Assembly: GCA_964371305.1 (NCBI GenBank)
Contig: CAYJLA010000002.1
Span: 6,236-70,235, forward strand
Direction of reading: 5' to 3'
DNA from: an uncultured Staphylococcaceae bacterium
Lineage (GTDB): Bacteria; Bacillota_I; Bacilli_A; RFN20; CAG-826
Length of the DNA: 64,000 nt
Shown: piece after piece, positions 22,880-53,865 of the stretch
Layout of the letters: each line of letters opens with the position of its first letter
Position numbering within the stretch: the first letter of the stretch is position 1
Translations under genes and position numbers: made by a program
Notes under the pieces: model-generated
Database searches by the model: none
The model's input: the letters and a program-made list of their open reading frames with translations, nothing else
What the model was told of the DNA's origin: nothing

Positions 22880-22968
22880 TAATTATATTATTTTATATAA
22901 TATAGGCAAGTGTTTTTTATATAAAAAATTTGTGAAAACGTTTTCATAATAAAAATCATTTTTATGTG

Positions 22969-26270: not shown

Positions 26271-26538
26271 TAAGTAGTTCTCCTTAATTTAATAATCGAT
26301 TTAATTATATATTAACTAATTACTTTTTACAACGAATAGTACCATGATTGCGAGTAACTATGAATTTAACTTCCATTAGTTGTGGAATGTACAACATTAA
26401 CAAATGGATAGAAGTTGTTTATGCAATTTGTAGATAATTTATAGATATATATTAATTTATAAAGACAATTAAGCATCATGAATTGCGTGTGTATTCCTTT
26501 TAGACTATAATTTTCTTAAGAAAGAAACGAATTTACTT

Positions 26539-27480: not shown

Positions 27481-27508
27481 AGAATTTTTGTAAATATATT
27501 TTCCGTTA

Positions 27509-27545
27509 TAGTTTTGTCTACCTTTATAGCAGTTTTGTCATATTT
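27509..27545 (+). promoter_or_regulatory. direct-repeat cis-element copy 1 (tAGTTTTGTC-N12-gcAGTTTTGTC), candidate response-regulator operator
   Basis: Near-identical copy at 53768..53804; related copies at 34440..34473, 44139..44154, 29141..29175, 26413..26444. Confidence 0.5.
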
Positions 27546-27610
27546 TTTTATGCAAATGCTACCAATATAATAAACATATAAGCGTTTACATGCAAAAATA
27601 AGGAGAAAAT

Positions 27611-29095
27611 ATGAAGAAAACAAAACTATTAGTTTGTAGTGCTTTAGTTGCATTACTCGGCGTCACAGTTTTTTCAAGCAGTGTTACAAATAAGAACGTT
27701 ATTGGAACGCATGCTGCTGTTAATTCATCATTTGTAGAAGGTGAAGATAGAAAATTAGATAGCTTAACAGGAAGAGAAAATTTAATTGATGAAACTTTAT
27801 TTGATTACCAAGCAATTGAAGGTGCACACACATGGCAAAATAAAGATGTATTGAGAGTCAATATGAGCAATATTGCAGCAACTCAAAGAATTTATGGTGT
27901 AGCACCTAAATTAAATAGAGTAGGTAGATTAGGTGTGCTTGCCATAGAACTCAAGAGTTCAAATGGAGTAACTTTGTCTGATTTAAATATTAAATACAAT
28001 CGTGGAACATCACCAACTTCATATACTAATGTTACATTAAATTTTGCAGATGCAGTTGATGGTAATGGTAATCCATTGCCTGAAATAACAAATCAATGGC
28101 AAACAATATATATCGATGCAGTTGATTCATTAGATGAAAGTTATTCTGACATTGCTTCATTCATTGGCGATGGAGGTGGTGGATACAGTGATTTCAGTAT
28201 TCTACCAACTCAAGGTACAACTGGAAATCTAGACATCAATTACATTTGGTATGAAATAGAACAAGGATTGGGTTATTACAGCACCGGTGATGTTTATCAA
28301 ATTGACAACTTTGATGGTAGAACAAGTGTTAGTGATGCAACAGGATCAAATGTTTATTGGAGAGATTCATGGGCTGGCGGTACTATCGCTCCTAATAGAG
28401 TTATTTTATACAATACATCTTACTCAGTAGCTTCTCTTACTAATGGTAACGCTGACAATAAATATGGTAACTTAGCAATTAATGCATTTATTGGTAGTAT
28501 TTCAGAAGTAACGCCAATTTATACAACAAACAATGTAGATTTCTTTGAAGGTACTGCTGTTGCGTGGGCTAATTTAAGAGATCATAATAATGTGGAATTA
28601 GGAAGTATTTCTACTTCAGGTTTTGCGACCAAAGTTATTAATTTTGCAAATAGTGGCATTGAATATAGTAATATGGTCGGCATAAAAATTACTGGTTCTA
28701 GCGGTGTAGCAATTAATGAAATTTATTTTACTGGAGAAAACACTGCGGCTAAAGGAATTAATGATTTAGTTGATTATTTATTGCTTGAAGACACAGATGG
28801 CCAATGTAACACAAAGTTCAATACAGCTAAAACAATGTACTTAGGATTAAGTGAAACCGATAAAACTACATTTACAACTGGAACTGATAGAATTGCAGAA
28901 GCCAGAGTTCGTTATGAAGCTTGGGCAACTCATTTAGGACAAAGTGCATACGATGCATCTGAAGTCTTATTAGGTGCACAAGGTGAAATGAATACTAATA
29001 ACATAATTGCGGCTATTTCAATAATTAGTTTGGTAGGTACTTCAAGCATAATATTATTTGTATTCTTGAATAAAAGAAAAACTGTAAAAAGATAA
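27611..29095 (+). CDS. secreted surface protein, paralogue family A, C-terminal TM anchor + KRKTVKR tail
   Basis: Sec signal peptide; shares EDRKLD, APKLN..G..GVL.I.L.S and IDNFDGRTSVS blocks with 29256..31226; C-terminal hydrophobic helix plus basic tail. Confidence 0.6.
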   Translation: MKKTKLLVCSALVALLGVTVFSSSVTNKNVIGTHAAVNSSFVEGEDRKLDSLTGRENLIDETLFDYQAIEGAHTWQNKDVLRVNMSNIAATQRIYGVAPKLNRVGRLGVLAIELKSSNGVTLSDLNIKYNRGTSPTSYTNVTLNFADAVDGNGNPLPEITNQWQTIYIDAVDSLDESYSDIASFIGDGGGGYSDFSILPTQGTTGNLDINYIWYEIEQGLGYYSTGDVYQIDNFDGRTSVSDATGSNVYWRDSWAGGTIAPNRVILYNTSYSVASLTNGNADNKYGNLAINAFIGSISEVTPIYTTNNVDFFEGTAVAWANLRDHNNVELGSISTSGFATKVINFANSGIEYSNMVGIKITGSSGVAINEIYFTGENTAAKGINDLVDYLLLEDTDGQCNTKFNTAKTMYLGLSETDKTTFTTGTDRIAEARVRYEAWATHLGQSAYDASEVLLGAQGEMNTNNIIAAISIISLVGTSSIILFVFLNKRKTVKR

Positions 29096-29103
29096 AATAG
29101 TTC

Positions 29104-29131
29104 AAAGGGCCGATTAGTTTCGGCCCTTTTT
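29104..29131 (+). terminator. rho-independent terminator GGGCCG-loop-CGGCCC + T5
   Basis: GC-rich 6-bp stem 29107-29112/29121-29126. Confidence 0.7.
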
Positions 29132-29255
29132 ATATTAATTTGCAGTTTATTATGCTATTAATGCAGTTTTATGCCATTTATACAAAAGGAAAAGATTGAT
29201 ACAATTTTATTATCGAACAATAGATAATGTTTTAAAATATAAAGGAAGGTAAAAT

Positions 29256-31226
29256 ATGAAGAAATTACTTGTAGGTTTAGGTCTTCTAGGTACATTAGTT
29301 ATTTCGGCAGTGAGTTTCCCTCTAGAAACAAATGCAGCTGGGAAAGAATTTGATGTAGATGAAGATAGGATGCTTGATGATTTCAAGCATGAAGTGCTTG
29401 AAGATACTTCACAGTTTAGTTTAGTTGATGCAACTGGAAACTATGATTACAATAGCGCTAGTTATTTAGATGTTAATATAAACAATAACAACAATACTGT
29501 TAACACAGCTATTTATAAAGCTGCCCCAAAATTAAACACAATGGGAAAAACAGGCGTATTGTCGATTACATTACGTAGTATTGATAGTAGTGTTTCACTG
29601 GCGGATTTAGATTTACATTATAGAGGTGCTAGTGATAAGGACAGCGACACTCTTGCAGTTAATCTTGCTGAAGCGCGTGACCAAGATAACGCAGCGCTAG
29701 ATGAAATTACAGCGAGTTGGACTACTATACACATATCCCCAATGAATTCAGTTGAAGATCAGGCTTATATAAATGGGTATGTTGGTTTGCACCTAGTCGC
29801 TAAACCTAATTTAATTGGCAAATTATCAATTAAAGAAATGTGGTATGCCGAACAGCAAGGAAGTCCATTCAATGCATCTAGTGGAGTTTATCCAATTGAT
29901 AATTTTTCTGGAAGAGAGACTGTTTCTCAAACAAATAGCGAATATCCAAATACATGGTGGAGATTTTCTCATACAGGTGTACTAGCCTCAAACGGCTTAA
30001 CACTTAATGGTGGTACTTATACGGTTGCAAGTGATTCACGTGGTAATGGCGATAATGCACACAGCAATATAGTATTAACGCTCAAAGGCGGTGAAATGGA
30101 TGAGATAAAATTCGTTTATGGTGATGTAACAAATGGATATACATATTCAAAACCATATGCATGGAATGAATTAAAAAATAATGCAGGATCTACATATCCT
30201 AGTATCACTACTCAAGAATTTTATGGTTATATAATTAATTTTGATGCTACTGGTATTGAATCAAACATTGCAGGCATAATGTTAACTGGAACAGGTGTTA
30301 CAATAAAAAGTATATTCTTCACAAGTGAAGCTCCATTAATTCCGGCTACAGAATTTCCTAGAATGAACGCTGATAGTAGGAGAGTGTTTGAAGATTTTAA
30401 TCGCGATATAGTTGGAGCAACAACAACATATATACCAAATACTCCTACAGCAACCGCAGGCGATTTATATTACATTTTATCTTATAGTGGAAGTGAATCT
30501 TTAGCTATGGAAGATAATGCATTAGTATTTGATGGAACAAAATCTCCAGGAACTACAATAAACTATAAATCAAGTGGTAGTCGAAATAATAATGGTACTT
30601 ATCCGTTTGTTGTTTTTAAGATGAAGGGTACTGATGGTGCTAGCTTGAAAAACTTTAGTTTTACAACAATTGATGATAGTGGTAATACAACTGAGCCAAA
30701 ACTATTTAATGAGTTATATAGTGATGTGCAATACAATATACCTGATTTTGACGCGATAGATTATCCATACACCACTTCAGATGGCTGGATGTATATAATC
30801 ATTAATCTAGAATATAGTGGATTCCCAGCAGGATGTCATGGTTTTGACTTCTATTACAGTGGCCCTGGTAAGCTTTATATAGATGAAACATTATATATGA
30901 CAAGAGCAACCGCTGCAGTTGAATACACTGATGTAGTAAGTAGTCTAGAGACACAAAGTGACGTAACTTTGCCAGAAATTGAATATAGTTTAGTTGATCA
31001 ATTGACTATTGGCGAAACTGTTGTAATTAATCCAACATTCACAGATGACATGACTAGTAGTGAAGAAATCACAACTGTCATAAAAGTCAAACATAATGGT
31101 GAATACATTGATTTGACTTCAGAAAATTCTTTTGTTGTTGAACAAGGTAGTTATATAATCATAATCATTGCGATCGATAATAACAATAATACAAATATCT
31201 TGAAACTTTATAGGGAGGTAGCATAA
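29256..31226 (+). CDS. secreted surface protein, paralogue family A (no C-terminal anchor)
   Basis: Signal peptide ...ETNA/AGK; conserved blocks shared with 27611 and 37153 proteins (DNFSGRETVS, EDFNRDIVG). Confidence 0.6.
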   Translation: MKKLLVGLGLLGTLVISAVSFPLETNAAGKEFDVDEDRMLDDFKHEVLEDTSQFSLVDATGNYDYNSASYLDVNINNNNNTVNTAIYKAAPKLNTMGKTGVLSITLRSIDSSVSLADLDLHYRGASDKDSDTLAVNLAEARDQDNAALDEITASWTTIHISPMNSVEDQAYINGYVGLHLVAKPNLIGKLSIKEMWYAEQQGSPFNASSGVYPIDNFSGRETVSQTNSEYPNTWWRFSHTGVLASNGLTLNGGTYTVASDSRGNGDNAHSNIVLTLKGGEMDEIKFVYGDVTNGYTYSKPYAWNELKNNAGSTYPSITTQEFYGYIINFDATGIESNIAGIMLTGTGVTIKSIFFTSEAPLIPATEFPRMNADSRRVFEDFNRDIVGATTTYIPNTPTATAGDLYYILSYSGSESLAMEDNALVFDGTKSPGTTINYKSSGSRNNNGTYPFVVFKMKGTDGASLKNFSFTTIDDSGNTTEPKLFNELYSDVQYNIPDFDAIDYPYTTSDGWMYIIINLEYSGFPAGCHGFDFYYSGPGKLYIDETLYMTRATAAVEYTDVVSSLETQSDVTLPEIEYSLVDQLTIGETVVINPTFTDDMTSSEEITTVIKVKHNGEYIDLTSENSFVVEQGSYIIIIIAIDNNNNTNILKLYREVA

Positions 31227-32547: not shown

Positions 32548-32573
32548 AAAGGCAGATTTTCTGCCTTTTTTTA
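32548..32573 (+). terminator. rho-independent terminator AGGCAG-loop-CTGCCT + T7
   Basis: stem 32550-32555/32561-32566. Confidence 0.7.
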
Positions 32574-32735
32574 TCTCTTTCGTAGCAAATGTATTTTAAT
32601 AATATATAACTACGAAATGCATTATTATTAGATTATAAATCAACAATGTTAGGAAATATAACGAAGTTGTTAGGTTAAACTGCATATGTGTTAACATTTG
32701 TTTACTATAGTAAACTTTGTTGTTAATCTAAGTTT

Positions 32736-34442
32736 ATGAAAAACATATATAAACTATTTATTCTCATGTCACTAGTATTAACGGGGTGTAATAGTGTCAC
32801 ACCAGATAATACTGTGTCAAATTCTATAGATCCAGCACCTAGCGAAGAAATAAGTGTTACAACGCCATCAACAACAGATAAGCCACAAATGAAACAGTCG
32901 TATTTAGAAACAATAAATGTTCCATCAGAGATTGAACTTCTTGAGGGAATCACTCTTGAAAGCAATGGCATGAATATACCTGTTATGAAAGTAATGGTTA
33001 ACGATTCTCATGTATTTGAATATCCTGAATCAACAAGAATTGAATCTGGGTACTCGATTGTGTCCTTAGAAGGCAAAGCTACTCTTACATATACATTTAA
33101 TTATGATGTCAATAACGATACAGTTGTATTACCTAGTGATTATAATATTGTGCCTACAGTTGAATCAAATAAAAAAACAGTAAGTTTTGAAATATTTGAC
33201 CCAGGCTATTATGTTATTCAACCAAATAATGATATTTATAAAGCTATACATTTATTTGTAGAGCAAAAAGTTCAAAAAACGACATTAGACTTTGATGATC
33301 CAAATTTAATCTATTTCGGACCAGGAGTTCACAATAAAGATAACTCGCCTTATATCAATGATAAAAACTTTATATCGGTCAAAAGTGGACAAACTATATA
33401 CTTGGATCATGGTTCATTCGTTCAAGGAAGAATACAAGGTTATCAGGTTAATAATGTTACAGTCACTGGTGGAGGTGTATTCGATGGAACACCTTTCAGT
33501 AGAGAAGATGTAATTGTTCCAGTTTCATTTTCAAAAAGTCATGATATTCTTGTTGAAAATATATACTTAATAGATCCAGCAGCCTGGACGCTTCAATATA
33601 ATTTTGTTTGGAATTCTTCAATCAAAAACGTAGCCATTATTTCAAGTAGAGCAAATGGAGATGGCGTAACTTTGCAATCATGTGAGAATATAACTGTTGA
33701 TAATGTATTTGCAAGAGGTTATGACGACAACTTAGTCGTCAAAAATTACGCTTTTCCTTATGGAAATACTGATCCAAATAGTGTTGGGCATTCAAACAAT
33801 ATAACTTTTACAAATTGTGTTCTGTGGACTGACCTAGCTCAGTCAATAGAAATAGGCTATGAAACTTTAGGTGAAGAACTTAGTTATATTACTTTCGATA
33901 ATATCATTATATTAGCTGCTAATCACAAACCAGCAATTTCTATTCACAATGGTAATAGTGCTTTAGTGCATGATATTATATTCAAGAACATAACAGTTGA
34001 GTTTGCAAACATGGGAATGGGAGATGGTGCATACAATAAGGAATTGATAGATTTTAGTTCAATTTATTCAGCGGCATTTTCTGACAAGGCTCAAGGACCG
34101 ACTAAAGTCGGTAATATAGAAGGAGTTCTTGTTGAAAACGTTTTAGTTAAGGAAGTAAGAGAAAATTTAAATATTGAAATTAAACTTTACGGACAAAAAG
34201 ATACAAGAGAAGATTTCAAGGGCATTGTTTCAACTGTAACTGATATCGAATTTAAAGACATCACAATCAAAAATGAAAAATTGACGCTTGGAACGGCAAA
34301 TATTAATGCAAATCAGTATGCAAGTAATTATCGTTTTAGTAATAGCGATAATGAATCCACAGGAAGCTTGATTATATACGAAATCTCTAAAGAAGATCTT
34401 TTGAATTACACAAGCGAAGCAATAGTTAGTATTTTTAAGTAG
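32736..34442 (+). CDS. right-handed beta-helix (pectin-lyase-fold) glycoside-hydrolase-like lipoprotein
   Basis: LVLTGCN lipobox; NVTVTGGGVFDG, RANGDGVTLQSCENITVDN, GYDDNLVVK rungs reminiscent of GH28/GH49/GH87 beta-helix enzymes; family not assignable. Confidence 0.5.
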   Translation: MKNIYKLFILMSLVLTGCNSVTPDNTVSNSIDPAPSEEISVTTPSTTDKPQMKQSYLETINVPSEIELLEGITLESNGMNIPVMKVMVNDSHVFEYPESTRIESGYSIVSLEGKATLTYTFNYDVNNDTVVLPSDYNIVPTVESNKKTVSFEIFDPGYYVIQPNNDIYKAIHLFVEQKVQKTTLDFDDPNLIYFGPGVHNKDNSPYINDKNFISVKSGQTIYLDHGSFVQGRIQGYQVNNVTVTGGGVFDGTPFSREDVIVPVSFSKSHDILVENIYLIDPAAWTLQYNFVWNSSIKNVAIISSRANGDGVTLQSCENITVDNVFARGYDDNLVVKNYAFPYGNTDPNSVGHSNNITFTNCVLWTDLAQSIEIGYETLGEELSYITFDNIIILAANHKPAISIHNGNSALVHDIIFKNITVEFANMGMGDGAYNKELIDFSSIYSAAFSDKAQGPTKVGNIEGVLVENVLVKEVRENLNIEIKLYGQKDTREDFKGIVSTVTDIEFKDITIKNEKLTLGTANINANQYASNYRFSNSDNESTGSLIIYEISKEDLLNYTSEAIVSIFK

Positions 34443-34473
34443 AATAATCTACCTTAATTGCAGTTTTATCAAC
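34440..34473 (+). promoter_or_regulatory. direct-repeat cis-element copy 3 (ATCTACCTT-AATTGCAGTTTTATCAAC)
   Basis: Aligns with 27509..27545 and 53768..53804 copies; immediately upstream of 34523 gene. Confidence 0.45.
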
Positions 34474-34522
34474 TTATGGTTATTTACTAAATATGAGAAA
34501 ATTAAAATGTGAAGGAGTTTTT

Positions 34523-37152: not shown

Positions 37153-40062
37153 ATGAAAAAAATTACATTTGGACTAATCAGTTTACTTGCAACCCTTGGG
37201 TTAGTGTTCGCAACTAACGCAGGTGATGCTACAAAAGTAAGTGCAAGAGATTATGATGAAAATTATGACGTTTGGTTAGATGATCTTTCCGGAGACACCC
37301 CTGCAGGAACATTAACAAACGGTGCATTTAATAAAGTGCCATATTTAACAGCACAGGCAAGCGGAGATTTTGGAAAAGATCCAAACGAAGCGCTTTATAA
37401 AGCGGGTATTGGTAGTTTTACTTTTTCGAATTCAAAAGAGGTAACTTTATCAATGAGAATTGGAAATGAAGGAGCACTCAGTTTAGGTGATTTATCTATT
37501 GCGATTAGAGGTGGCGATTCATATGTTCCATATGCTGTTACTTTTGATACTTTATTTACTACTGATGGCGAGTCTATGCCAGCACTTACAAATGAATTTC
37601 AAGATTATACTATAAGTTGGACAACTTCACTTGAAGGAACAGAAATGTACACAGTTGCATCAACTGGAGAACTTTCAACTGTTAATGTTTTATCATCTGA
37701 AATGGTTGGCATTCATATATATTATTCAGGTGAAGGAGATATGACTACACCGTTAGAAATTTCTTCAATTAAATCTGGATCTACTGTAGTCGATGACTTT
37801 AATAGAACCGATGTTAGTTCAACAGTTGGTTGGTCTGGATGGTGGAGAGGTAGTGTTGGAACTATAGTTAATAAGAGTATTCATTTAAATCAAAATGATT
37901 CACAATATGATGTATATGATGATTCAAAGACTGACTTTAGTGGAGTAGTTGTTCTCATAAGTGGTGATAGTACAGGCGTATCTTTTGCAGTACGCAGCAA
38001 CAGTGCGTATTCTTCGTATATCCCATACCTAGATATAAAAGATTACGATAATAATACTGTTGAATCACTAAGTAATGAAAAACAAGCTATTTATATAGAT
38101 GCAGAAAATACATTTTCAATTGTAGATGACATTACAGGGGTTAGCATAAGAGCTGCTACACCAAATGTACATATTTGGGGTATATTTCTTTCAAACAACG
38201 AATCTACACCTGCTGATGTTTCATGGCCGTCACTTGATCTAAAAAACGTGACGTATTTTGATGATTTTAACCGCGCAGATAGAAATAAATTTGAGACGTC
38301 TTACGATGCTTCTCAAGCAGCCTTGACTGATGAAGATAAACAACACGGAGTCGATTATAATATCGCATACGAAGGTGCTGACTATGTTAGTTTAATAGAC
38401 GAAGCTCTTGTTTTTAAACCAAATAATGGTTCTCTTGTAAACTATGGACATGGTGTAAAAACTGATGTTTCTAATAATGATTATTTAGTATTTTCAGTTA
38501 AAACTACTGAAAACGCTACACTAGATGGTTTTAGAGTTAGTATTGGTAACGATATACTATGGGCAAATCAATTTATGTCTGGTAATCAGTTACCAGCAGC
38601 ACAAATTGGGCAAGTAGGATATCCATTTATTGATGGTGAATTTACATGGTTGATTATTGATTTACATCAACATGAAATTAGTCCAAGTAATACAATGGTT
38701 TTCTATTATGAATCAGGTGTAGATGTAACTGGTAATATAGTCATCGACCAAATATTCTATACTAATGCAAAAGACGACTTAAACACCACATCAAGAGTTG
38801 GAATTGAAGAAACTACATATAGTCTTGATGCAGCTAAAGATTTAGGCACTTTTACTAGCACTTTAATAAAAGATACTGTACTTGTCGAAATGGATATGAC
38901 AATTACAGGAACAACTAAAATCGATGGACTAAGTTTAGTCGTTGGCGGAACGGAACTTACTTTTGCTAGTGGACTAATTAACCAATTTGGTGAAGTTATT
39001 CCTACTGAATATAGCGATGAAACATTCAAAGTTACAGTAGACTTATTAGCAAACGGAATCACTTTAGTAGATGGTGCTTCAGTAGTTTTGAAAAATAATA
39101 CAGTTGTCGCAGGAGGAACACTTACTGTTGCAGCAACTTTAAAAGATAGAGTTTTACATAATGTAAGAAATATCATTGCTTCTACAAGCGTTGATACATC
39201 TGGTTATGTTTATGGTGGAGGAATTGATCTTACACAATTGCAATCAAATCTTATTGAATTTAATGTAACTTCCACAAGTGATGTTGTTGATGGTATTTCA
39301 TCATTGAGATTAGAGTTTGTGACCGGAGAATTCTTATTCTTAAATACAGGAACTGTTTATAATCAATATGGAGAATTAATTTCAACAAATTTAATAGCTG
39401 GAGAAAATTCAATTGTTATTGATTTAACGGCTTCAGGAATAGATGTAAATTCAATTAAAGGAGCAGGACATTTTCATGCTGGTGGATGGGGACCTGCTGC
39501 TACCCTTACAGTAGAAATTAATGAAGTTAGTTATAGAAACCTATCTCAAGATGTTACAGAGTTAGAACAGTTTAAAAAATATGATATTGTTGCACCAACT
39601 GTTTCTATGTTTGAAGTCAGCGGATCTACAACCGTAGGAAGTGAATTAACAGTTACTTATAATATAAATGATGATGTTAGTCTTGAAGAAAACCTTACTG
39701 TCAAAGTAATAGTATCTTATGGTAGTGGTATTACATACATGGAAGAAAACATAACTTCAACAATGAAGTTTACTCCAACTGTAGCGCAGGACTATACATT
39801 TACAATTACTGTTACAGATGAAGCGGGCAACGAAGTTGAAGTAGATAAAGTTATTAATATAACTGAAGCAACTACAGAACCTCCAATCACTTCTGAACCT
39901 AGTGTCGGTGAATCAACTACAATCGGTTCAACATCAACTGGCGGCGGGAATAATGAACCAGTTGATAATACAATGTTAATCGTTATACTTTCTTCAGTTG
40001 GTGGGGTTATCCTACTAGGTGGCGTTATATTCTTTGTGATTAACAAAAGAAGTAAAAAGTAA
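37153..40062 (+). CDS. large secreted surface protein (969 aa), paralogue family A modules, C-terminal TM anchor + KRSKK tail
   Basis: Signal peptide ...ATNA/GDA; repeated DDFNRTDVSS / DDFNRADRNKFE modules; Thr/Ser/Pro stalk then hydrophobic helix and basic tail. Confidence 0.6.
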   Translation: MKKITFGLISLLATLGLVFATNAGDATKVSARDYDENYDVWLDDLSGDTPAGTLTNGAFNKVPYLTAQASGDFGKDPNEALYKAGIGSFTFSNSKEVTLSMRIGNEGALSLGDLSIAIRGGDSYVPYAVTFDTLFTTDGESMPALTNEFQDYTISWTTSLEGTEMYTVASTGELSTVNVLSSEMVGIHIYYSGEGDMTTPLEISSIKSGSTVVDDFNRTDVSSTVGWSGWWRGSVGTIVNKSIHLNQNDSQYDVYDDSKTDFSGVVVLISGDSTGVSFAVRSNSAYSSYIPYLDIKDYDNNTVESLSNEKQAIYIDAENTFSIVDDITGVSIRAATPNVHIWGIFLSNNESTPADVSWPSLDLKNVTYFDDFNRADRNKFETSYDASQAALTDEDKQHGVDYNIAYEGADYVSLIDEALVFKPNNGSLVNYGHGVKTDVSNNDYLVFSVKTTENATLDGFRVSIGNDILWANQFMSGNQLPAAQIGQVGYPFIDGEFTWLIIDLHQHEISPSNTMVFYYESGVDVTGNIVIDQIFYTNAKDDLNTTSRVGIEETTYSLDAAKDLGTFTSTLIKDTVLVEMDMTITGTTKIDGLSLVVGGTELTFASGLINQFGEVIPTEYSDETFKVTVDLLANGITLVDGASVVLKNNTVVAGGTLTVAATLKDRVLHNVRNIIASTSVDTSGYVYGGGIDLTQLQSNLIEFNVTSTSDVVDGISSLRLEFVTGEFLFLNTGTVYNQYGELISTNLIAGENSIVIDLTASGIDVNSIKGAGHFHAGGWGPAATLTVEINEVSYRNLSQDVTELEQFKKYDIVAPTVSMFEVSGSTTVGSELTVTYNINDDVSLEENLTVKVIVSYGSGITYMEENITSTMKFTPTVAQDYTFTITVTDEAGNEVEVDKVINITEATTEPPITSEPSVGESTTIGSTSTGGGNNEPVDNTMLIVILSSVGGVILLGGVIFFVINKRSKK

Positions 40063-40080
40063 GATTATTTAATGTTTATA

Positions 40081-40106
40081 AGGAGCAATTTTTTGCTCCT
40101 TTTTTA
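40081..40106 (+). terminator. rho-independent terminator AGGAGCAA-tttt-TTGCTCCT + T5
   Basis: perfect 8-bp stem. Confidence 0.7.
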
Positions 40107-40166
40107 TTGACAAACTACTAAAGTATTTTTGTTTAAATATGAGTTAATAAATGGTAAAATAAATAT

Positions 40167-41381
40167 ATGTATAAAATGATTGTAATTGATGATGAAATCA
40201 TCGTTAGAAGAGGTATTAAAGAAACTATCGATTGGTCTAAACATAATGTTGAAATAATTGGAGATGCTTCAAACGGCCAGGAGGGATATGAACTTATTAA
40301 AAAGTTGAATCCTGATATTGTTATTACTGATGTGAAAATGCCGATTTTGACAGGAACTGAACTTGCAACTAGGCTAAAAGACGATGGTTTTAATGGAATA
40401 GTTATTATTATTTCTGGCTATAAAGATTTTGAATATGCAAAAAGCGCTCTTAGTGCAGGTGTGTTTCAGTATTTACTCAAGCCATTTGCTAATCGTGAAT
40501 TAGAAGAGTGTGTAAACGATGCAATCAATAAACTAAAAGAACGTATGAAAACTGAAAATATATTAGATGTTTTTAGTAGTTCAAAGATAGACTTGAATAG
40601 TAAATTGTTTAGAGACATTGTTAGAAAAAATTATGCTAATATCGATGATATAAGAAATATGTTTGTAATTTCCAATATTGATTTCTTTGATGAATACTGT
40701 ATCGTGATTGGTGTTTTGGATAAAATTGACGAACATTTTTCAAGTGATAGAAAAATGATAAAGTGTATAGATGATGCATTTAATGATCATGAAAATCAAT
40801 ATTTGTTAGGAGTATATCATAACAGAGTCGTCATGGTTACAAACCTTGAACACGATCTAATTATTAAACTTCTTGAGAACGCTTTTAAGCATTTTGAGTT
40901 AATAACTAGCGAATTTACATTTTCTTTCGGTATGAGTGATTCATCCAATACCTTTAGTAACGCTAATGAGTTGTATGAACAAGCAAAAAATATTGCAGAA
41001 AATAAATTATTTACTACTTCTAATTCAATATTAGATAATAGTGGTGAAACAAAAAAATATAAAAAGAATACAGTAGAAATTCTTAAAATAATTCAAACAA
41101 GATACAGTGAAAATCTCACTGTTAAAATTGTTGCTGAAGAAGTTTTGATTAGTGAATCATCGTTAATGCATTTACTAAAGGATGATTTAGGAATGACTTT
41201 CAATGATATTCTAACAACACACAGAATCAATGAGGCCAAAAAACTCCTCCTAAGTTCAAAATATAGAATAAATGAAGTCGCAAGATTAGTAGGATATAGT
41301 GATGATAAATATTTTACTGCTCTATTTAAGAAAAAAACAGGCTTAACTCCATCAAAATTTATATTAGCGAATGAACAATAA
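40167..41381 (+). CDS. two-component response regulator, REC + AraC-type HTH (YesN-like)
   Basis: IVIDDE...ITDVKMP phospho-acceptor region; C-terminal AraC HTH (GYSDDKYFTALFKKKTGLTPSKF). Confidence 0.8.
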   Translation: MYKMIVIDDEIIVRRGIKETIDWSKHNVEIIGDASNGQEGYELIKKLNPDIVITDVKMPILTGTELATRLKDDGFNGIVIIISGYKDFEYAKSALSAGVFQYLLKPFANRELEECVNDAINKLKERMKTENILDVFSSSKIDLNSKLFRDIVRKNYANIDDIRNMFVISNIDFFDEYCIVIGVLDKIDEHFSSDRKMIKCIDDAFNDHENQYLLGVYHNRVVMVTNLEHDLIIKLLENAFKHFELITSEFTFSFGMSDSSNTFSNANELYEQAKNIAENKLFTTSNSILDNSGETKKYKKNTVEILKIIQTRYSENLTVKIVAEEVLISESSLMHLLKDDLGMTFNDILTTHRINEAKKLLLSSKYRINEVARLVGYSDDKYFTALFKKKTGLTPSKFILANEQ

Positions 41382-43104
41382 TAAAAGTAAGAAATCAATC
41401 TCTGTTGTGCTATTTACATCTATTAGCGTTCTTTTTGTCTCAATATTTATTATAGTTGTTACAAGTGTATTTATAACTGTGAATATAGCTACTGGTAATT
41501 ATAGTAAGAATAATTTTACTACATCTGCAAACAAGGTTGATGATACATTATCCGAAATCTTATATTCAATAACAGCTACTCATGTTTTAACTTTCAATGA
41601 CGAAGGAATTTCTGAATTTTCATTAGTCGATGACAATAGTAAGCAAGTATATTTTGAAAATTTATATAAAAATGGGTCAATTAATAACGAGAATTATGTT
41701 GGTATGAGTTTGTACTTTGAAGATAAAACTTACATATCAAGTCAAGCCGTCCCCTTTCTTGGTAAAACCGAAATAGATGCAGTTAACAATAGTAGCAACT
41801 ACATGGTTTATGTAAGTACTATTTCTTCCAGTGATGAATCTATGATAGTTTTTGGTAAAAAAGTTCAATACTCATTAGCATCTGAATCAGTAGGGGTTGC
41901 ATTTTACTATTTAAAAGAGAGTGTTATATTAAAAGTTTTGGATTTGATTAATGTTGAAGGCTCCGAAACATTTTTGGTCACTAATGATGCTTATGGTGTT
42001 GCACATCCTAATGAGGAACTTAATGGAATTTACTTATACAATTTTGAATTTGCTAGGTATTTGGGCTCCAACTCAGTCGAGGAGTTTGGGAATTATAATG
42101 GTAAATATTCTATTTTTTCGTTAAGTTCTATGCACAAAACTAATTATGCATATGATTTAGACTTTACAATCGTGTCCGCAACTCCGTTTTACTCTGTGTA
42201 TGGAAGCATCATCATTACGTATTTGATTGTAGGTATTATCGCGCTTATTTCACTCGCACTAAGCATTACATTTGGTATTTTAATTTCTAAAAAAATAATT
42301 AATCCATTGATCAGTCTTTCACACAAGGTAGGTGAATATTCACCTTTACAAGACACAATATTAACTAAAGTAGTAGATAACAAGAACGAAGTATACATTT
42401 TAGAAGAATCTTATGATTTAATGATGGATAGAATTAGAAATTTAATGAACCAATCAATTCGTGATATGGAAACGAAAAGAAATTTAGAACTAGAAACTCT
42501 ACAAATGCAAATTAATCCGCACTTTTTATATAACACATTAGATGCAATTGCATGGATGGCCAAATTTAAAGATGAAAAAGACATCGAACAATTAGTAATT
42601 GAATTATCAAAGTTTTATAGAGTTTCGCTTCATAAAGGAGCAAAGTTTATTAAAGTAAGTGAAGAAATGGAAATTATAGACCATTTTATGAAAATAGAGC
42701 TGGTAAGATTTCCTAATAAATTTACGTATGATTTAAATATAGATGAAGATGTAAAAAATGCTCAAACTCTTAAACTTATATTACAACCTATAGTAGAAAA
42801 CGCAATCAAGCATGGATTAGCTTCACTTAATAGAATTGGACATATTGATATAACTGTCTCAAGAAGTAACGATAATATCATATTCATTATTAAAGATGAT
42901 GGTGTAGGTTTTGATTTTGATGATTCTTCGTTTTTGGATAGGAAAAATGATCCAAGCTATCATGGTGGCTATGGATTGTATAATGTACAAGAAAGAATAC
43001 ATTTAGAGTATGGTTCGCAATATGGCATTGAAGTTGATTCAATAAAAGATCGTGGAACAAAGGTTATAGTTAAAATACCATTTATATATCATTCTGTTGA
43101 TTAA
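41371..43104 (+). CDS. sensor histidine kinase (YesM-like; 2 TM + extracellular sensor + HAMP + His_kinase/HATPase)
   Basis: INPHFLYNTLDAIAW H-box, N/G boxes (IVENAIKHG, DDGVGF, GYGLYNV); overlaps RR stop by 11 nt. Confidence 0.8.
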   Translation: MNNNKSKKSISVVLFTSISVLFVSIFIIVVTSVFITVNIATGNYSKNNFTTSANKVDDTLSEILYSITATHVLTFNDEGISEFSLVDDNSKQVYFENLYKNGSINNENYVGMSLYFEDKTYISSQAVPFLGKTEIDAVNNSSNYMVYVSTISSSDESMIVFGKKVQYSLASESVGVAFYYLKESVILKVLDLINVEGSETFLVTNDAYGVAHPNEELNGIYLYNFEFARYLGSNSVEEFGNYNGKYSIFSLSSMHKTNYAYDLDFTIVSATPFYSVYGSIIITYLIVGIIALISLALSITFGILISKKIINPLISLSHKVGEYSPLQDTILTKVVDNKNEVYILEESYDLMMDRIRNLMNQSIRDMETKRNLELETLQMQINPHFLYNTLDAIAWMAKFKDEKDIEQLVIELSKFYRVSLHKGAKFIKVSEEMEIIDHFMKIELVRFPNKFTYDLNIDEDVKNAQTLKLILQPIVENAIKHGLASLNRIGHIDITVSRSNDNIIFIIKDDGVGFDFDDSSFLDRKNDPSYHGGYGLYNVQERIHLEYGSQYGIEVDSIKDRGTKVIVKIPFIYHSVD

Positions 43105-44092
43105 TTTTGCTGTGTAATTCAATTAGTGGTTTTTTGATAAAATATGCCATTTTAGCAGATATAATAATAGTAAACGCCATAATAATAATGTCAACAGAGA
43201 GAAAAATTATTATTAACATATTTGTATTGTAGTACTTGTTCTGTTCAGGAATTATTACAGTAAAATCAATAGCGTTAGTTAAGTTTATTTTTGAATATAA
43301 TTTTCCATTTAGATTACTAATCATTTTTTCACTATATGGATATGAAACATCATACATATCAATATCTTCACTAACTAAATATAATATTGATGTATTGTCT
43401 GAAATATATGTATTTCCGTTTTCAAAAAAAGTGTATTCAGATATGTCGAAAATCGTTGAGTATAAATAATTGGTGTCGTAGTCTGCAACGATATATCCTA
43501 TAACATTTTCATTGCCATCATATACCTTTAAAAATAGAGAAAGTAATCCCAATGAATCGTTATAAGGTTGCATTAAATAGTTGTTGGCAATAGCTTTATT
43601 TCTAATAAATATAGTTGATGTATCTGATGAACTTATAAAAGAAGAAAATCGCACAACTTGTTGTAGTTCAACTAGAGTTGCTGGGCCGCCAATTGAACTA
43701 CTTGAAACTATTCTATTATCGGTGGTGTATAAAGAGATTCCAAGTAAAGAATTATAGGTTACAGAAATCACATTTATATAATCTTGCGTTTCTTGATATG
43801 AACTAGATCCACTAATATAGTTTTTTATAATTTGGTTATTAGAAACTCCTTGTAAAGTAGAATATATAATTTGATTGTGCAGCTGAAATGAATTCGAAAT
43901 AACTTGAGTTTCACTCATAGTATAACTATCAAAATCTCTCATATAATAAAAATGCATGTTTACAATTGTAACTATTGTGATCAAGACAACAAAAAAAGAA
44001 ACAGCACTAATAAACAATGTTTTAACTTGAAAGCTTAATCTTTTAAACATAAGTACATTTAAAGTATAACAAAATGAAGTCAAAAACAACAA
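43082..44092 (-). CDS. sensor-domain-only paralogue of the adjacent YesM-like kinase (truncated after HAMP start; possible gene remnant)
   Basis: TM1 + extracytoplasmic domain + TM2 + FIKKPLIELHSKI aligns with kinase residues DFTIV...ISKKIINPLISLSHKV; no H-box/HATPase; 3' end overlaps kinase gene by 23 nt convergently. Confidence 0.45.
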   Translation of the reverse strand: MLFLTSFCYTLNVLMFKRLSFQVKTLFISAVSFFVVLITIVTIVNMHFYYMRDFDSYTMSETQVISNSFQLHNQIIYSTLQGVSNNQIIKNYISGSSSYQETQDYINVISVTYNSLLGISLYTTDNRIVSSSSIGGPATLVELQQVVRFSSFISSSDTSTIFIRNKAIANNYLMQPYNDSLGLLSLFLKVYDGNENVIGYIVADYDTNYLYSTIFDISEYTFFENGNTYISDNTSILYLVSEDIDMYDVSYPYSEKMISNLNGKLYSKINLTNAIDFTVIIPEQNKYYNTNMLIIIFLSVDIIIMAFTIIISAKMAYFIKKPLIELHSKINQQNDI

Positions 44093-44138: not shown

Positions 44139-44154
44139 TGCAGTATTGTCTACC
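44139..44154 (+). promoter_or_regulatory. cis-element half-site copy (TGCAGTATTGTCTACC) upstream of sugar-binding protein gene, followed by extended -10 TGtTATAAT
   Basis: matches GCAGTTTTGTCTACC core of copy 1. Confidence 0.4.
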
Positions 44155-44224
44155 AAAAAACACTTTTTATAGTATTAAAAAGGCTATTTTGGGTTGTTAT
44201 AATACAAATAGGTAGGTAAATTAT

Positions 44225-45637
44225 ATGAAAAAATTAATTAAATCATTATTAATGTGTGGAGCAATGGCCAGCGTAATTGCGTTTACAACTGGTTGTAGCG
44301 AAGATGATGGAGTTGTTCAAGTAAGAATAGGGATGTGGCCAGCTGCACAATTAACACAAGACATAGCAATGTTTAACAATTGGAAAACTGAGTTCGAAAG
44401 AGATAATCCTGGATATGAAATTATTGCTGATAACTATGAATATGATCCTAGTACAGTAGTGGCCAAAGCTCAATCTAAAACGCTTCCTACGGTGTTTCAA
44501 ACATGGTTTACTGAACCAGAAATGTTAATAAACTCAAGATATATAAGAGATATTACTCCTCAACTTAATGAATTAGGTTGGCTTGATAAAATGGATGTAA
44601 AAATGAAAGACATTTTATCAAGAGATGGAAAAACTTACGGTGTACCAAGAGACGGTTATGGACTTGGTATGGTTATGAACTTAGAACAACTGGAGTTTTA
44701 TGGAATTTTAGAAGACCTAGATGGTGATGGAAAAATTGATATACATGATGAAGATGGTCAGCCGCTTTATCCTACGACTTTTGAAGAATTAAGGCAATTA
44801 AGTGTCGATATAGATAGTGCAAGTGATGGAATGGTCAAAGGTTCACTTATTTTATCCTCAAATAAAAATGGAGGATGGCAATTTTCTAATATAGCATGGA
44901 ATTTTGGTGCTGAATTACAAATAAAAAATAGTGAAGGTAAATATGTTGGCAATCTTGCAAGTGATGAATCAGTTGATGCATTAGAATATATACAAGATCT
45001 TGCCCAAAATGACTTATTACTTGATAATACCGCAGTCGTTTATAATGATTGGACAAGGTTTATTTCCGGACAAGTTGCAACTGCTTTTGTGGGAAATGAT
45101 GTTGTAGCAAATGCTGTTACGCAAGGTGGCGTAGATTTAGACAAGATAGCATTTGTACCAATGCCAGCTGGTCCAGATTCACAAAATGCATTGTTTGGTG
45201 GAACTCCTTATGTTTTTGCTAATAATGCTACTGATGAAGAAGTTATGGGCGCCTTAAAGTTTCTTGAATATATGGGTAGATCTCCAGAAGACTCTGATAT
45301 TGCAGAAGAGGCATTAGAAGAAGGAGCACAACTTTCACAAGCAAAGTCAATACCTATTTTGCCTTCAATTAAGCCATGGACAAACGATGAATATCTAACC
45401 TTAACTAAAAGTATTGAAGATAAGTACGTTAATGTAGAGATGGATTATTTTAAAGATTTCTATGATTCAATCTATACAATTAGACACGACGAAGAACCTT
45501 ATTTCACACAGGCAATGTATTCGTTGTTAGATAATTGTATACAAGAAGTTCTAGATGATCCATATTCAGCTAATGCTAAAACATTATTGGAAACTGCAAA
45601 CAGTCAATTTAACAACCAATATATGTCCAATTTATAA
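44225..45637 (+). CDS. sugar ABC transporter substrate-binding lipoprotein (family 1 SBP)
   Basis: AFTTGCS lipobox; 470 aa extracellular solute-binding protein pattern. Confidence 0.8.
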   Translation: MKKLIKSLLMCGAMASVIAFTTGCSEDDGVVQVRIGMWPAAQLTQDIAMFNNWKTEFERDNPGYEIIADNYEYDPSTVVAKAQSKTLPTVFQTWFTEPEMLINSRYIRDITPQLNELGWLDKMDVKMKDILSRDGKTYGVPRDGYGLGMVMNLEQLEFYGILEDLDGDGKIDIHDEDGQPLYPTTFEELRQLSVDIDSASDGMVKGSLILSSNKNGGWQFSNIAWNFGAELQIKNSEGKYVGNLASDESVDALEYIQDLAQNDLLLDNTAVVYNDWTRFISGQVATAFVGNDVVANAVTQGGVDLDKIAFVPMPAGPDSQNALFGGTPYVFANNATDEEVMGALKFLEYMGRSPEDSDIAEEALEEGAQLSQAKSIPILPSIKPWTNDEYLTLTKSIEDKYVNVEMDYFKDFYDSIYTIRHDEEPYFTQAMYSLLDNCIQEVLDDPYSANAKTLLETANSQFNNQYMSNL

Positions 45638-45649
45638 AAAGGAAATATA

Positions 45650-46609
45650 ATGAAAACAAACTCTCTTACTACTACTAAGACAGTTAAAAACAAGAGGCTT
45701 AAAACGTTGCTTGTTAAGAACTTATCTGGCTGGGCATTAATGTTGCCTGGCTTGATTTTGTTTGTTTTTTTTGTTTGGGGACCGTTAGCTGACAATATCT
45801 TGACATCCTTTTACTCAACAATTGGGTTTGAAAGAGTTGATTTTGTGGGTGTTGCTCAGTATGTACGGGTGTTCGAAGATCCAGAGTTTATAAACGCTTT
45901 AACAAATACCTTTGAATATCTTGGTTGGTCACTATTGATTGGATTTATTATACCTATTTTTCTTGGTTTACTTTTGTCAGAAGTTATTCATTTAAAGGGT
46001 TTCTTTAGGATAGCAATATATTTGCCAGCTGTTTTAAGCGGTGTCGCAACAGCAATACTTTGGGCATATATATTTGATCCAAATGACGGAGGTATGTTGA
46101 ATACAATACTTCAGTCGCTGGGATTACCAACATTAAAATGGACAGATGATTCCGATTTAGTAATTCCTTTGATTGTATTAACAATGACTTGGAAGGGTGC
46201 GGGGAGTACAGCACTTATATATTTAGCGAGTATGCAGTCGATTAATTCGAATTTATATGAAGCGGTCCGCATTGATGGGGCTAACGCGTTTCAAAGAATT
46301 AAAAATATTACTTTACCAAGTATTCTTCCAACTATTTCAACGTTATTTATTCTTCAAGTAATATCTATAATGCAAGTTTTCTATGAGCCTTTATTAATTG
46401 CAAAGGGATCACAAGCTTCAATGACATTGCTTTTACTTGGTTATAACTATGCGTTTGATAGCAAATACTCGGGTAGCGGAGTTGGAGGTTATGGTTTTTC
46501 TACGACTGGCCAATCATCGGCAGTAGCAGTCATTTTAGCTTTAATTATTCTTGGTCTTACAGCTGTATATTTTATAGTTCAACATTTCGTTAAGAAGAGG
46601 TATCAATAA
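45650..46609 (+). CDS. carbohydrate ABC transporter permease (MalF/UgpA-like)
   Basis: 6 TM, EAA-like loop region; operon position. Confidence 0.8.
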   Translation: MKTNSLTTTKTVKNKRLKTLLVKNLSGWALMLPGLILFVFFVWGPLADNILTSFYSTIGFERVDFVGVAQYVRVFEDPEFINALTNTFEYLGWSLLIGFIIPIFLGLLLSEVIHLKGFFRIAIYLPAVLSGVATAILWAYIFDPNDGGMLNTILQSLGLPTLKWTDDSDLVIPLIVLTMTWKGAGSTALIYLASMQSINSNLYEAVRIDGANAFQRIKNITLPSILPTISTLFILQVISIMQVFYEPLLIAKGSQASMTLLLLGYNYAFDSKYSGSGVGGYGFSTTGQSSAVAVILALIILGLTAVYFIVQHFVKKRYQ

Positions 46610-47532
46610 TGAAAATGTATAACAAATTATTGAGTAAGTTCAAGAACAAAGATAAAGAAACATTATTAACCAAAAAAGGTGGCGTTTTAACTTTTATTGA
46701 TTATAAACGTCCACTTAATAAATTTATATATATAATCATGATACTTATTCTTGTTAGTGTCGCTTTAACAGCGTTACTTCCAATATTTATATTACTTCTA
46801 TCTTCTTATAAAGGTCCGTCAGAGTTATATGCAATACCTTTTAATTTATTTCCACAAGCTTTTGATATAACAAAAATGTTTACTGTTTGGCAGGAAGTTC
46901 AATTTGAAAAGTATTTGTTCAATACTTTAATCGTTTGTTTTGGAGCTGCATTCGTTGGCGTAATAGTAAATGGATTGCTTGCATATTCAGTATCTGTGGT
47001 AAAGCCATGGGGACATAAATTTTTCTACATTTTAATTATGGCTTCGTATATGATACCTGGCATACTTTCAATTGTGCCATTGTATTCATCAATAGTTAAC
47101 TTATCGCTTACAAATACATATATACCTTTATGGTTTGTAATGGGAGCAAATGCATTTTATTTTATATTATTTAAAAATCATTTTGATTCAATTCCGGGTG
47201 CTCTTATAGAAGCTGCAAGGGTTGATGGTGCTAGTAACATAAGAATATTTTTTAGTGTAATTATTCCAATGTCTAAATCTATTATGTTACTTGTTGCAAT
47301 TTTTTCAATTACAACTGCCTGGAATGATTTCTTGCTGCCATATTTAGTACTACAAGATTCGAATATGCAAACAATTATGGTGTTGCTATATCAAAAATCT
47401 GGTGATGCACAATTTTCACCAGATAAATTATTAATGTTATCACTTATCTCAATTATACCTCAAATAATTATCTTTTTTGTGTTTCAAAAACAGATAGTAG
47501 GTAGTGCAATGAGTAGTGGTTTAAAGGAGTAA
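46609..47532 (+). CDS. carbohydrate ABC transporter permease (MalG/UgpE-like)
   Basis: 6 TM, EAARVDGAS EAA motif. Confidence 0.8.
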   Translation: MKMYNKLLSKFKNKDKETLLTKKGGVLTFIDYKRPLNKFIYIIMILILVSVALTALLPIFILLLSSYKGPSELYAIPFNLFPQAFDITKMFTVWQEVQFEKYLFNTLIVCFGAAFVGVIVNGLLAYSVSVVKPWGHKFFYILIMASYMIPGILSIVPLYSSIVNLSLTNTYIPLWFVMGANAFYFILFKNHFDSIPGALIEAARVDGASNIRIFFSVIIPMSKSIMLLVAIFSITTAWNDFLLPYLVLQDSNMQTIMVLLYQKSGDAQFSPDKLLMLSLISIIPQIIIFFVFQKQIVGSAMSSGLKE

Positions 47533-47536
47533 AATT

Positions 47537-49795: not shown

Positions 49796-49801
49796 GTATT
49801 T

Positions 49802-52740: not shown

Positions 52741-53715
52741 ATGGAAATACGAAGGAGCGTAGGGCTTAAAGAAATTGCTGCAGAATTAAACATAAGTATA
52801 AATGCAGTATCCAGAGCGTTGAGAGATTGTAGTGATATTTCTGAAAGCACTAAACAAAAAGTAAGGAATGCAGCTATTGAATTAGGTTATGTACCAAATG
52901 CAGTAGCTCAATCATTACGAAATGGCAAGTCAAAACAAATAGGTTTTGTAACAGACACTGTACTTAACCCATTTTTACCGGTGATGTCTGATATCATTTT
53001 GAACAAACTGGAAGAAATTGATTATGGTGGTGTTATTATACCTAATAAAACCGGATTTGATCGTAGCGTAATTGCAAAATGCATATCGCAAAGATTAGAT
53101 GCGATTGTAGCATTTGTTAAGCCTACTCCAGATACAATTGAGTGTGCTAGATTAAACAATTTAAAGATTGTATTTCTTGGAAAATGTGATGAACCTGACG
53201 TTGTAAAATGCGTTTACTTAGATACAATAAAAGGCGGTAGATTAGCAGGAGAACATTTTGTAAAAAATGGACATAAAAATCTTATATATGTATCATTAAA
53301 TGGCGCTGTTGGAAGTAAAAGAAGACAGGAAGGTATTGAAGGATTTGTTGAAACTTTCAATAGTCGTAATGGAGAGCAAATTAAGTTGGAAATTGTTAAG
53401 TTTGAAGAGATGGAAACTAGAGTTCCGGAATTGATAAAGCAAGGTTTTACTGGTATACATACACATAGTGATACAATTGGACTTATACTTGAAAAACATC
53501 TATCTAAATTAGGTTTAAAAGACGGAGTCATGATTATTGGTATTGATGGTGTAGGAAGACATTTATCAATTTGCGAAAAAATTAATTCTATTGTTGGAGA
53601 TTTTAATGAAGGTGGCGAAAAAGTTATAGAAAAACTCAAGTTAATTTTCAACGGCAAAGCTGATGAAGTTGGAGATACAATAATTGACGTAAACTTGATT
53701 TTAGAAGATCAATAG
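52741..53715 (+). CDS. LacI family transcriptional regulator
   Basis: N-terminal HTH LKEIAAELNISINAVSRALRD + periplasmic-binding-protein-like sugar-binding core. Confidence 0.75.
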   Translation: MEIRRSVGLKEIAAELNISINAVSRALRDCSDISESTKQKVRNAAIELGYVPNAVAQSLRNGKSKQIGFVTDTVLNPFLPVMSDIILNKLEEIDYGGVIIPNKTGFDRSVIAKCISQRLDAIVAFVKPTPDTIECARLNNLKIVFLGKCDEPDVVKCVYLDTIKGGRLAGEHFVKNGHKNLIYVSLNGAVGSKRRQEGIEGFVETFNSRNGEQIKLEIVKFEEMETRVPELIKQGFTGIHTHSDTIGLILEKHLSKLGLKDGVMIIGIDGVGRHLSICEKINSIVGDFNEGGEKVIEKLKLIFNGKADEVGDTIIDVNLILEDQ

Positions 53716-53752: not shown

Positions 53753-53767
53753 AATTTTTATAAATAG

Positions 53768-53804: not shown

Positions 53805-53865
53805 ATAATTTTAGCAAATTCATTATAATATTTTATGTATTAATTTATCAAATGAGGAGAAAATA

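Follow-up and report, generated by a model that had tools for sequence, protein, structure and literature searches.

A conserved direct-repeat element at five promoters of a carbohydrate locus, the predicted operator of a YesN-like response regulator

Introduction

At the pBAD promoter, the araI1 and araI2 halves of the AraC site are direct repeats 21 bp apart, of which the proximal one overlaps the -35 box, and the strengths of the two halves can be unequal. The two repeats of the Pm promoter, which we take to lie at -70/-56 and -49/-35, are spaced by two helical turns, the proximal one being adjacent to the -35 region of a promoter that depends on its activator. These are homologous 15-bp direct repeats, each made up of a box A (TGCA) and a box B (GGTA) and each bound by one monomer of XylS, which contacts RNA polymerase (PMC5481539). 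In Caldicellulosiruptor, AraC-type two-component regulators (BxgRS, AxeRS and others) are associated with tandem repeats of 21- or 32-bp periodicity upstream of the promoters of CUT1 ABC transporters, and comparative genomics led to the inference that they are activators (PMC8579813). Experimental support exists for two YesN/AraC activators of Ruminiclostridium cellulolyticum, XydR and CuaR; autoregulation is absent for XydR, and expression of the cuaDSR operon is constitutive (PMC3572039, PMC10384115).

Here, we describe a pair of direct repeats that recurs at five promoters of a carbohydrate locus in the window (the whole 64-kb stretch of DNA that was analysed). Based on its co-localisation and co-conservation with the gene for a REC-AraC, YesN-like response regulator in the same locus, we predict that the element is the operator of this regulator, a reading that we consider likely. 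The motif sequence is new, while the type of element is well known and involves no new regulatory principle.

The resemblance to XylS and Pm lies in paired repeats of about 15 bp, in a 5' box (TGCA at Pm, TGCA/GCAG here) that is followed about one turn on by a 3' box (a putative one here), in the spacing of two turns, and in the position of the proximal repeat next to the -35 region. In contrast to Pm, the 3' boxes here differ between the distal (..ACC) and the proximal (..TAT) repeat, the host is Gram-positive/Mollicutes-related and has sigma-A type TATAAT promoters, and sequence identity ends at the TGCA box. The two regulators would also take their input differently, XylS through a small-molecule-binding N-terminal domain and the regulator described here through phosphorylation of its receiver domain. 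The 21-bp direct repeats, and the combination of a strong and a weak half at one of our sites (site D), recall araI1-araI2. Unlike at pBAD, neither a distal looping site (an araO2 equivalent) nor co-activation by CRP is evident in this locus, and here the input would be phosphorylation.

With the Caldicellulosiruptor systems the locus shares a kinase and a REC-AraC regulator, an ABC importer and glycoside hydrolases as predicted targets, and 21-bp tandem repeats upstream of the promoter. It differs from them in motif sequence and orthologous group, and the predicted regulon adds surface proteins, a separate beta-phosphoglucomutase promoter and beta-helix glycosidases. Conservation spans several orders here, compared with one genus there. 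Lastly, XydR, CuaR and XygR resemble the regulator described here in being response regulators with an AraC helix-turn-helix domain, and they activate nearby operons for polysaccharide degradation and import, the role predicted for it. The operators of these three regulators have not been defined at the nucleotide level, CuaR is longer (538 aa with a long middle region, against 404 aa here), and all three systems use an extra solute-binding protein as a third component, where the conserved neighbour in our locus is instead a Cache-like membrane protein without a kinase domain.

Results

The window has a GC content of 31.6%, and Pfam and NCBIfam searches place the carbohydrate locus at about 26.5-54.5 kb (Table 1). 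Within it, five promoters carry paired direct repeats of about 15 bp (TGCAGTTTTRT...). The element is a 36-bp repeat pair made up of a 15-nt half, a linker of about 5-6 nt and a second 15-nt half.

Table 1. Repeat elements, associated promoter sequences and genes of the carbohydrate locus. Dimer scores were obtained with the matrix built from orthologous loci only; offsets (bp) are counted from the first G of the proximal half to the first base of the -10 hexamer.
Feature	Position	Strand	Sequence	Context	Remarks
Site A	27508-27543 (halves 27508-27522, 27529-27543)	+	ATAGTTTTGTCTACC-N6-GCAGTTTTGTCATAT	before surface-protein gene 27611	dimer score 22.9
Site E	29142-29177 (halves 29142-29156, 29163-29177)	+	GCAGTTTATTATGCT-N6-GCAGTTTTATGCCAT	before surface-protein gene 29256	dimer score 27.0
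Site C	34439-34474 (halves 34439-34453, 34460-34474)	+	GTAGAATAATCTACC-N6-GCAGTTTTATCAACT	before beta-helix/F5-8C glycosidase gene	dimer score 23.1; distal half weak
Site D	44140-44175 (distal 44140-44154, proximal 44161-44175)	+	GCAGTATTGTCTACC-N6-CACTTTTTATAGTAT	before SBP-permease-GH65 operon (44225-51874)	distal half strong, proximal half degenerate
Site B	53767-53802 (halves 53767-53781, 53788-53802)	+	GTAGTTTTATCTACC-N6-GCTGTTTTGTCATAT	before beta-phosphoglucomutase gene 53866	dimer score 21.2
-10 box, site A	27566..27571	+	TATAAT		offset 37; TTTTTT at the -35 position
-10 box, site E	29200..29205	+	TACAAT		offset 37; TTTATA-17-TACAAT with TG extension in consensus scan
Candidate extended -10, site C	34494..34502	+	TGAGAAAAT		hexamer GAAAAT at offset 37; predicted from the sequence
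-10 box, site D	44198..44203	+	TATAAT		offset 37 from the proximal register
-10 box, site B	53824..53829	+	TATAAT		offset 36
cre-like palindrome	27577..27590		TATAAGCGTTTACA	6 nt past the -10 box of site A	separate from the repeat element
Ribokinase (rbsK)	26539
Surface proteins	27611-29095, 29256-31226, 37153-40062				no significant Pfam family
CE2 esterase	31226
GH28-like beta-helix proteins	32736, 34493				second with F5/8 type C domain
YesN-like response regulator (candidate cognate regulator)	40167..41381	+			REC, GGDEF_2-like linker, AraC HTH; 404 aa
YesM-like histidine kinase (cognate)	41371..43104	+			PF06580 His_kinase (5.1e-25), HATPase_c
Membrane protein	43082-44092	-			weak dCache match
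SBP and two permeases	44225, 45650, 46609
Two GH65 enzymes	47537, 49802 (47537-51874)
FNT channel	51896	-
LacI-family regulator	52741-53715
Beta-phosphoglucomutase	53866				bPGM equivalog, 232.6 bits

The GCAG-to-GCAG spacing is 21 bp in all five sites, at the lower end of the 21-22 bp proposed in the initial annotation, which had also described the element as recurring upstream of at least five genes; we find it at the promoters of 27611, 29256, 34493, 44225 and 53866. The two copies singled out there as near-identical, at 27509-27545 (site A) and 53768-53804 (site B), agree at 35 of 37 positions rather than the 34 first counted. The copy placed at 44139..44154, upstream of the SBP gene, stands as far as its distal half is concerned (score 16.4), but the proximal half of this site scores negatively (-5.2), its GCAG having become CACT. 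The proximal GCAG box is missing at the SBP promoter of the nearest relative (L067) as well, while the T-tract and the 3' AT are still in register; such a promoter may be weaker or may rely more on cooperative binding. At site C the distal half overlaps the stop codon of the upstream gene, and the true start codon of the glycosidase gene 34493 is likely to be that at 34523, which comes after GAAGGAG. Gene 29256 forms an operon with the CE2 esterase gene.

Alignment of 22 sites from the window and the orthologous loci described below, several of which come from related lineages so that the 22 promoters are partly non-independent, gives the consensus aGCAgTwTw..waCC for the distal half and TGCAGTTTTrTs.tAT for the proximal half. 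Four positions are invariant (22/22 each), namely A3 and C14 of the distal half and T7 and T15 of the proximal half, and G1, C2 and G4 are kept in 15-20 of the 22 sites despite the AT-rich DNA. The 5' box GCAG is strongly kept, and the 3' box at positions 13-15 is ACC in the distal and TAT in the proximal half; the proximal 3' box overlaps the -35 region, and its conservation may reflect constraints imposed by the polymerase. Both halves have the same orientation (direct, not inverted) in all 22 sites, and the element is no palindrome, matching its own reverse complement at 12-14 of 36 positions.

For cross-validation, a matrix was built from 28 half-sites of orthologous loci in other organisms only, and the window was scanned with it for pairs 20-21 bp apart. 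Since the matrix was trained solely on sites of other organisms, circularity is avoided. The four top-scoring dimers in the 64 kb were sites E, C, A and B, two of which (C and E) correspond to the related copies initially placed at 34440..34473 and 29141..29175, and the fifth dimer scored 12.8. Across 200 shuffles that preserved dinucleotides, pairs scoring at least 20 numbered 0.04 per shuffle on average (maximum 1), against the four observed. Among single half-sites, the four best in 128 kb (both strands) all fall in sites of the initial annotation and include the distal half of the SBP site. A census of 9-mers in all intergenic DNA ranks TAGCAGTTT and AGTTTTGTC just after the words of ribosome-binding sites (Shine-Dalgarno) and terminators. 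The exact sequence GCAGTTTTRT has three matches, all intergenic and all on the plus strand; with one mismatch allowed, the bare 10-mer shows no significant enrichment (23 matches against 15.6 expected). The signal resides in the dimer and the exact core, not in the bare 10-mer. A generic search for 11-mer direct repeats (12-34 bp spacing) missed the sites because their halves are too divergent.

The motif was not seen at other promoters of the 64-kb window. The copy tentatively placed upstream of rbsK (26413-26444) had to be dropped, as its scores do not exceed 2.2, and neither the region upstream of the regulator gene (40063-40166) nor that upstream of the LacI gene carries a site. Half-site scores of 9.7 at 40085 and 15.1 at 32552 were discounted, both lying within terminator hairpins. 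The glycosidase gene 32736 has no canonical site upstream and only one reverse-oriented half-site (GCAGTTTAACCTAAC, 32669-32683, minus strand, score 13.4); a reverse-oriented half resembling TTTTGCAGTAAAT also lies upstream of the orthologous gene in another locus (L073, about 2045-2065).

The position of the repeats relative to the promoter is nearly fixed. For 18 of the 22 promoters, the distance from the first G of the proximal half to the start of an exact TATAAT is 37 bp, and for two more it is 36 or 38 bp; the background in these loci is 0.00125 TATAAT per position. At site C, TAAAAT at 34503-34508 is an alternative -10 box. At site B, a second TATAAT (53804-53809) lies 37 bp past the distal half-site, and two overlapping promoter registers are possible there. 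Assuming a spacer of 17 bp, the -35 hexamer would begin at position 15 of the half-site, where poor hexamers are found (TTTTTT, TGTTAG, TTCTTT and similar). For a transcription start about 7 nt past the -10 box, the repeats would lie at about -70..-56 and -49..-35. Repeats in this position combined with poor -35 boxes are the layout of AraC/XylS class II activation. Of the AraC/OmpR-type tandem architecture invoked in the initial annotation, the AraC-type part agrees with the direct repeats and their 37-bp offset to the -10 box, but the OmpR part is unnecessary. The repeat period is 21 bp (in the window, L070, L067 and the glycosidase promoter of L004) or 20 bp (in Haloplasma-like loci), so that both repeats come to lie on one face of the helix.

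Sites E and B belong to separate promoters, because both come after intrinsic-terminator-like hairpins (a terminator at 29104-29129 before site E, and a hairpin/T-run ending the LacI gene before site B). A scan for sigma-70 consensus promoters was uninformative in this DNA of 32% GC (38 found, 49 expected) and listed only the site E promoter among the five; the other promoters, presumed to depend on the activator, escaped it owing to their poor -35 boxes. A reading of the repeats as RNA elements is excluded because an Rfam scan of the 64 kb gave no family at or above its gathering score and because the repeats lie upstream of the -10 box. At about 56.4-56.9 kb, a 475-bp GC-richer leader ahead of a run of short genes is likewise without an Rfam match.

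The repeat element itself does not match the cre pattern of CcpA (TGWAANCGNTNWCA). Of 20 motif-bearing promoters, four contain a match to that pattern with at most one mismatch (4 per 4.4 kb, where 0.46 would be expected), which suggests that catabolite repression through CcpA is layered over the activator at these promoters. The palindrome downstream of site A (Table 1) is a possible example of such a CcpA overlay; the other cre-like sites are in promoters of L002, L003 and L070. A perfect cre (TGAAAACGTTTTCA) is found elsewhere in the window, at 22933-22946.

Thirteen syntenic loci, with regulators 34-43% identical to that of the window, were fetched by a scan of a genome collection and by look-ups of exact proteins. 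They come from Haloplasmataceae, Clostridium sp. CAG:288, Erysipelotrichaceae, Acholeplasmataceae, Halothermothrix and metagenome bins, and share the order beta-helix glycosidase, surface protein, regulator, kinase, Cache-like protein (opposite strand), SBP, two permeases and GH65; some of them also contain a beta-phosphoglucomutase gene. For 11 of the 13, the fetched DNA covers a promoter region of the glycosidase gene, the SBP gene or both, and 10 of these 11 carry the dimer before one or both genes (L001-L005, L067, L068, L070, L072 and L073), the eleventh (L008) having a strong proximal half only. The glycosidase gene orthologous to that behind site C carries the same site in 10 other loci, and orthologous SBP promoters carry the dimer where site D has a single good half. 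In L006, L007 and L071 the regulator is present and no motif was seen; there, other genes follow or the transporter promoter falls outside the fetched DNA.

The converse comparison, with a matrix built from the window only, finds dimers scoring at least 16 in 8 of 12 orthologous loci, all on the strand of the regulator, against 2 of 58 paralogous YesN loci. Similarly, the core followed by a -10 box at 36-38 bp occurs 23 times in 273 kb of orthologous DNA, compared with 10 times in 1.06 Mb of paralogous DNA.

That the locus encodes a YesN-like REC-AraC regulator, as first annotated, is borne out by its Pfam domains: PF00072 (2e-23), PF12833 (HTH_18, 2.3e-19), PF00165 (HTH_AraC, 1.9e-14) and a weak PF17853 (GGDEF_2). 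The adjoining gene encodes a PF06580 kinase and shares an overlap with the end of the regulator gene. In the protein collection the regulator stands as a singleton, with nearest relatives at 38-43% identity. Identities in the DNA-binding domain are 44-63% among orthologues and 26-38% for paralogues, and those in the middle domain are 10-31%. The helix VSESYLMHLFK is found in orthologues only; the first recognition helix reads (V/I)SES(S/Y/H/F)(L/I)MH(L/V/I/M)(L/F)K in all of them and is different in the paralogues.

The units that carry sites adjoin the regulator genes and encode an ABC sugar importer and glycoside hydrolases, both here and in the orthologous loci. The first GH65 enzyme (GH65a) matches PDB 6W0P, deposited as a kojibiose phosphorylase, with 858 bits, and the closest entries for the second (GH65b) are 4KTP, whose deposition names just a GH65 catalytic-domain protein, and 3WIQ, another deposited kojibiose phosphorylase. 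Together with the beta-phosphoglucomutase, this pair points to a phosphorolytic alpha-1,2-glucoside pathway, and the predicted target genes (GH65 phosphorylases, beta-phosphoglucomutase and ABC importer) form one coherent pathway. Against PDB sequences, the beta-helix glycosidase gave only weak GH28/pectate-lyase matches, and its NCBIfam matches were far below cut-off.

An N-terminal signal peptide is present in all three surface proteins and a C-terminal hydrophobic anchor in two of them. The three have in common a domain of about 350 aa, 27611 and 29256 being paralogues (34% identity, E 2e-42), and in orthologous loci one copy always comes after the beta-helix glycosidase. We regard the three as candidate glycan-binding proteins. 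In 11 of the 13 loci (L001, L002, L003, L005-L007, L067, L068, L070, L072 and L073), the gene for the dCache-like membrane protein (about 300-357 aa, without a kinase domain) converges with the histidine kinase gene and diverges from the SBP operon; L008 stops short of this position, and L071 has the equivalent ORF on the plus strand. The protein has no significant similarity to the sensor domain of the kinase and may be a third sensing component. In two loci, an ECF-type sigma factor gene and a small downstream gene lie just upstream of the glycosidases (L070, 909-2534; L072, 562-1424), and the window has none.

Discussion

In proposing that the element is the operator of a regulon, we agree with the initial annotation. 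This reading is supported because all computational tests agree with it: the element is conserved in syntenic loci, it is rare in paralogous ones, its offset to the -10 box is fixed, and the DNA-binding helix of the regulator is conserved. On these grounds, it is very probable that the two-component activator encoded in the cluster docks at the repeats.

Who else might bind there? A genuine activator site could be bound by another factor encoded elsewhere, whether of the AraC family or of another response-regulator family, in which case the local YesN-like regulator would act on other sequences. Our view is limited to 64 kb of the genome, in which the sites may be more widely distributed, the assignment of the binder is based on co-localisation and co-conservation, and no motif was detected near the regulator-kinase pair that is retained in two distant orthologous loci (L006 and L007). 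We nevertheless consider another binder unlikely. The regulator-kinase pair is the only regulator conserved alongside the sites across the 11 loci, despite changes in gene order, whereas neither the LacI gene nor the ECF sigma genes found near some loci show such conservation. Moreover, paralogous YesN loci largely do without the motif, and the DNA-binding helix is conserved in step with it.

It is far less probable that the repeats are a structural promoter element accompanying strong -10 boxes, through phased T-tract curvature or a UP-element-like contact with the polymerase. In favour of this, a T-tract occurs in each half, and the halves recur with a period of 20-21 bp at a set distance from the -10 box. 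UP elements and curvature, however, do not require conserved G or C letters, and the best-kept positions of the motif are exactly such letters (G1, C2 and G4, and the distal C14). The motif is also confined to one orthologous type of locus and is not a general feature of promoters in the window.

We give even less weight to the view that the repeats have no present function and are a leftover of promoter duplication within the genome, or a chance product of AT-rich DNA. The near-identity of sites A and B would fit such an origin, as would the paralogy of the genes behind sites A and E, with which the promoters may have been duplicated. Against this, the shuffle controls speak against chance, the spacing to the -10 box is invariant, and the element is conserved before genes that are not paralogous (glycosidase, SBP and beta-phosphoglucomutase). 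It is also kept in organisms whose proteins are 35-55% identical, where neutral intergenic DNA would be randomised; protein identities of 35-58% exclude recent horizontal copying of one DNA segment. From the comparison across species, we regard this explanation as largely refuted.

Least probable of all is that the element is an operator of the LacI-family repressor whose gene lies immediately upstream of site B, since LacI-family operators are 14-20-bp palindromes overlapping the promoter or the transcription start, whereas the element lacks dyad symmetry and has its place upstream of the -35 region, and a tblastn search of 11 orthologous loci found no LacI homologue.

In light of the element being the probable operator of the YesN-like regulator, how might the system work? 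The membrane kinase would sense an extracellular alpha-glucoside or oligosaccharide and phosphorylate the regulator. The signal is probably a kojibiose-type alpha-glucoside, because GH65a is very close to 6W0P and GH65b has 4KTP and 3WIQ as its closest entries. Two molecules of the regulator would then occupy the two repeats, one each, with the two helix-turn-helix units of each AraC domain placed on the GCAG box and on the 3' box one turn away. The proximal molecule would recruit RNA polymerase (class II activation) and so make up for the missing -35 box. Five units would be switched on in this way: 27611; 29256 with the CE2 esterase; 34493 with 37153; the SBP-permease-permease-GH65-GH65 operon from 44225; and 53866. 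The regulator-kinase operon itself, which has no site upstream, is presumably constitutive. The lack of a site before 40167 matches the behaviour of XydR, which does not autoregulate, and the constitutive expression of cuaDSR.

A wider reading joins three propositions, and we put it forward tentatively, as it is doubtful that all of it will prove correct. In it, the repeats would be the first operator defined at the nucleotide level for a clade of YesN-type regulators that spans Erysipelotrichaceae, Haloplasmataceae, CAG:288-like and Halothermothrix-like lineages. The asymmetry of the sites (distal ..ACC against proximal ..TAT, with the proximal GCAG lost at the transporter promoter both here and in the nearest relative) would set a hierarchy of promoter strengths, and sensing would involve the kinase-less Cache-like membrane protein. 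If this were true, the regulon would define an undescribed foraging system for kojibiose-type alpha-glucosides, with novel beta-helix glycosidases and an uncharacterised family of surface proteins.

In addition to offering a precise predicted regulon and operator for an uncharacterised two-component system, the element ties at least 11 genes to one alpha-glucoside pathway, including those for three surface proteins, two beta-helix glycosidases, two GH65 phosphorylases and a beta-phosphoglucomutase. The operators of YesN/AraC response regulators are poorly defined experimentally, and the invariant geometry and wide conservation of this one make it a convenient system in which to study the contacts that an AraC-type regulator, once phosphorylated, makes with DNA and RNA polymerase. 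The motif can also aid the annotation of such loci in metagenomes.
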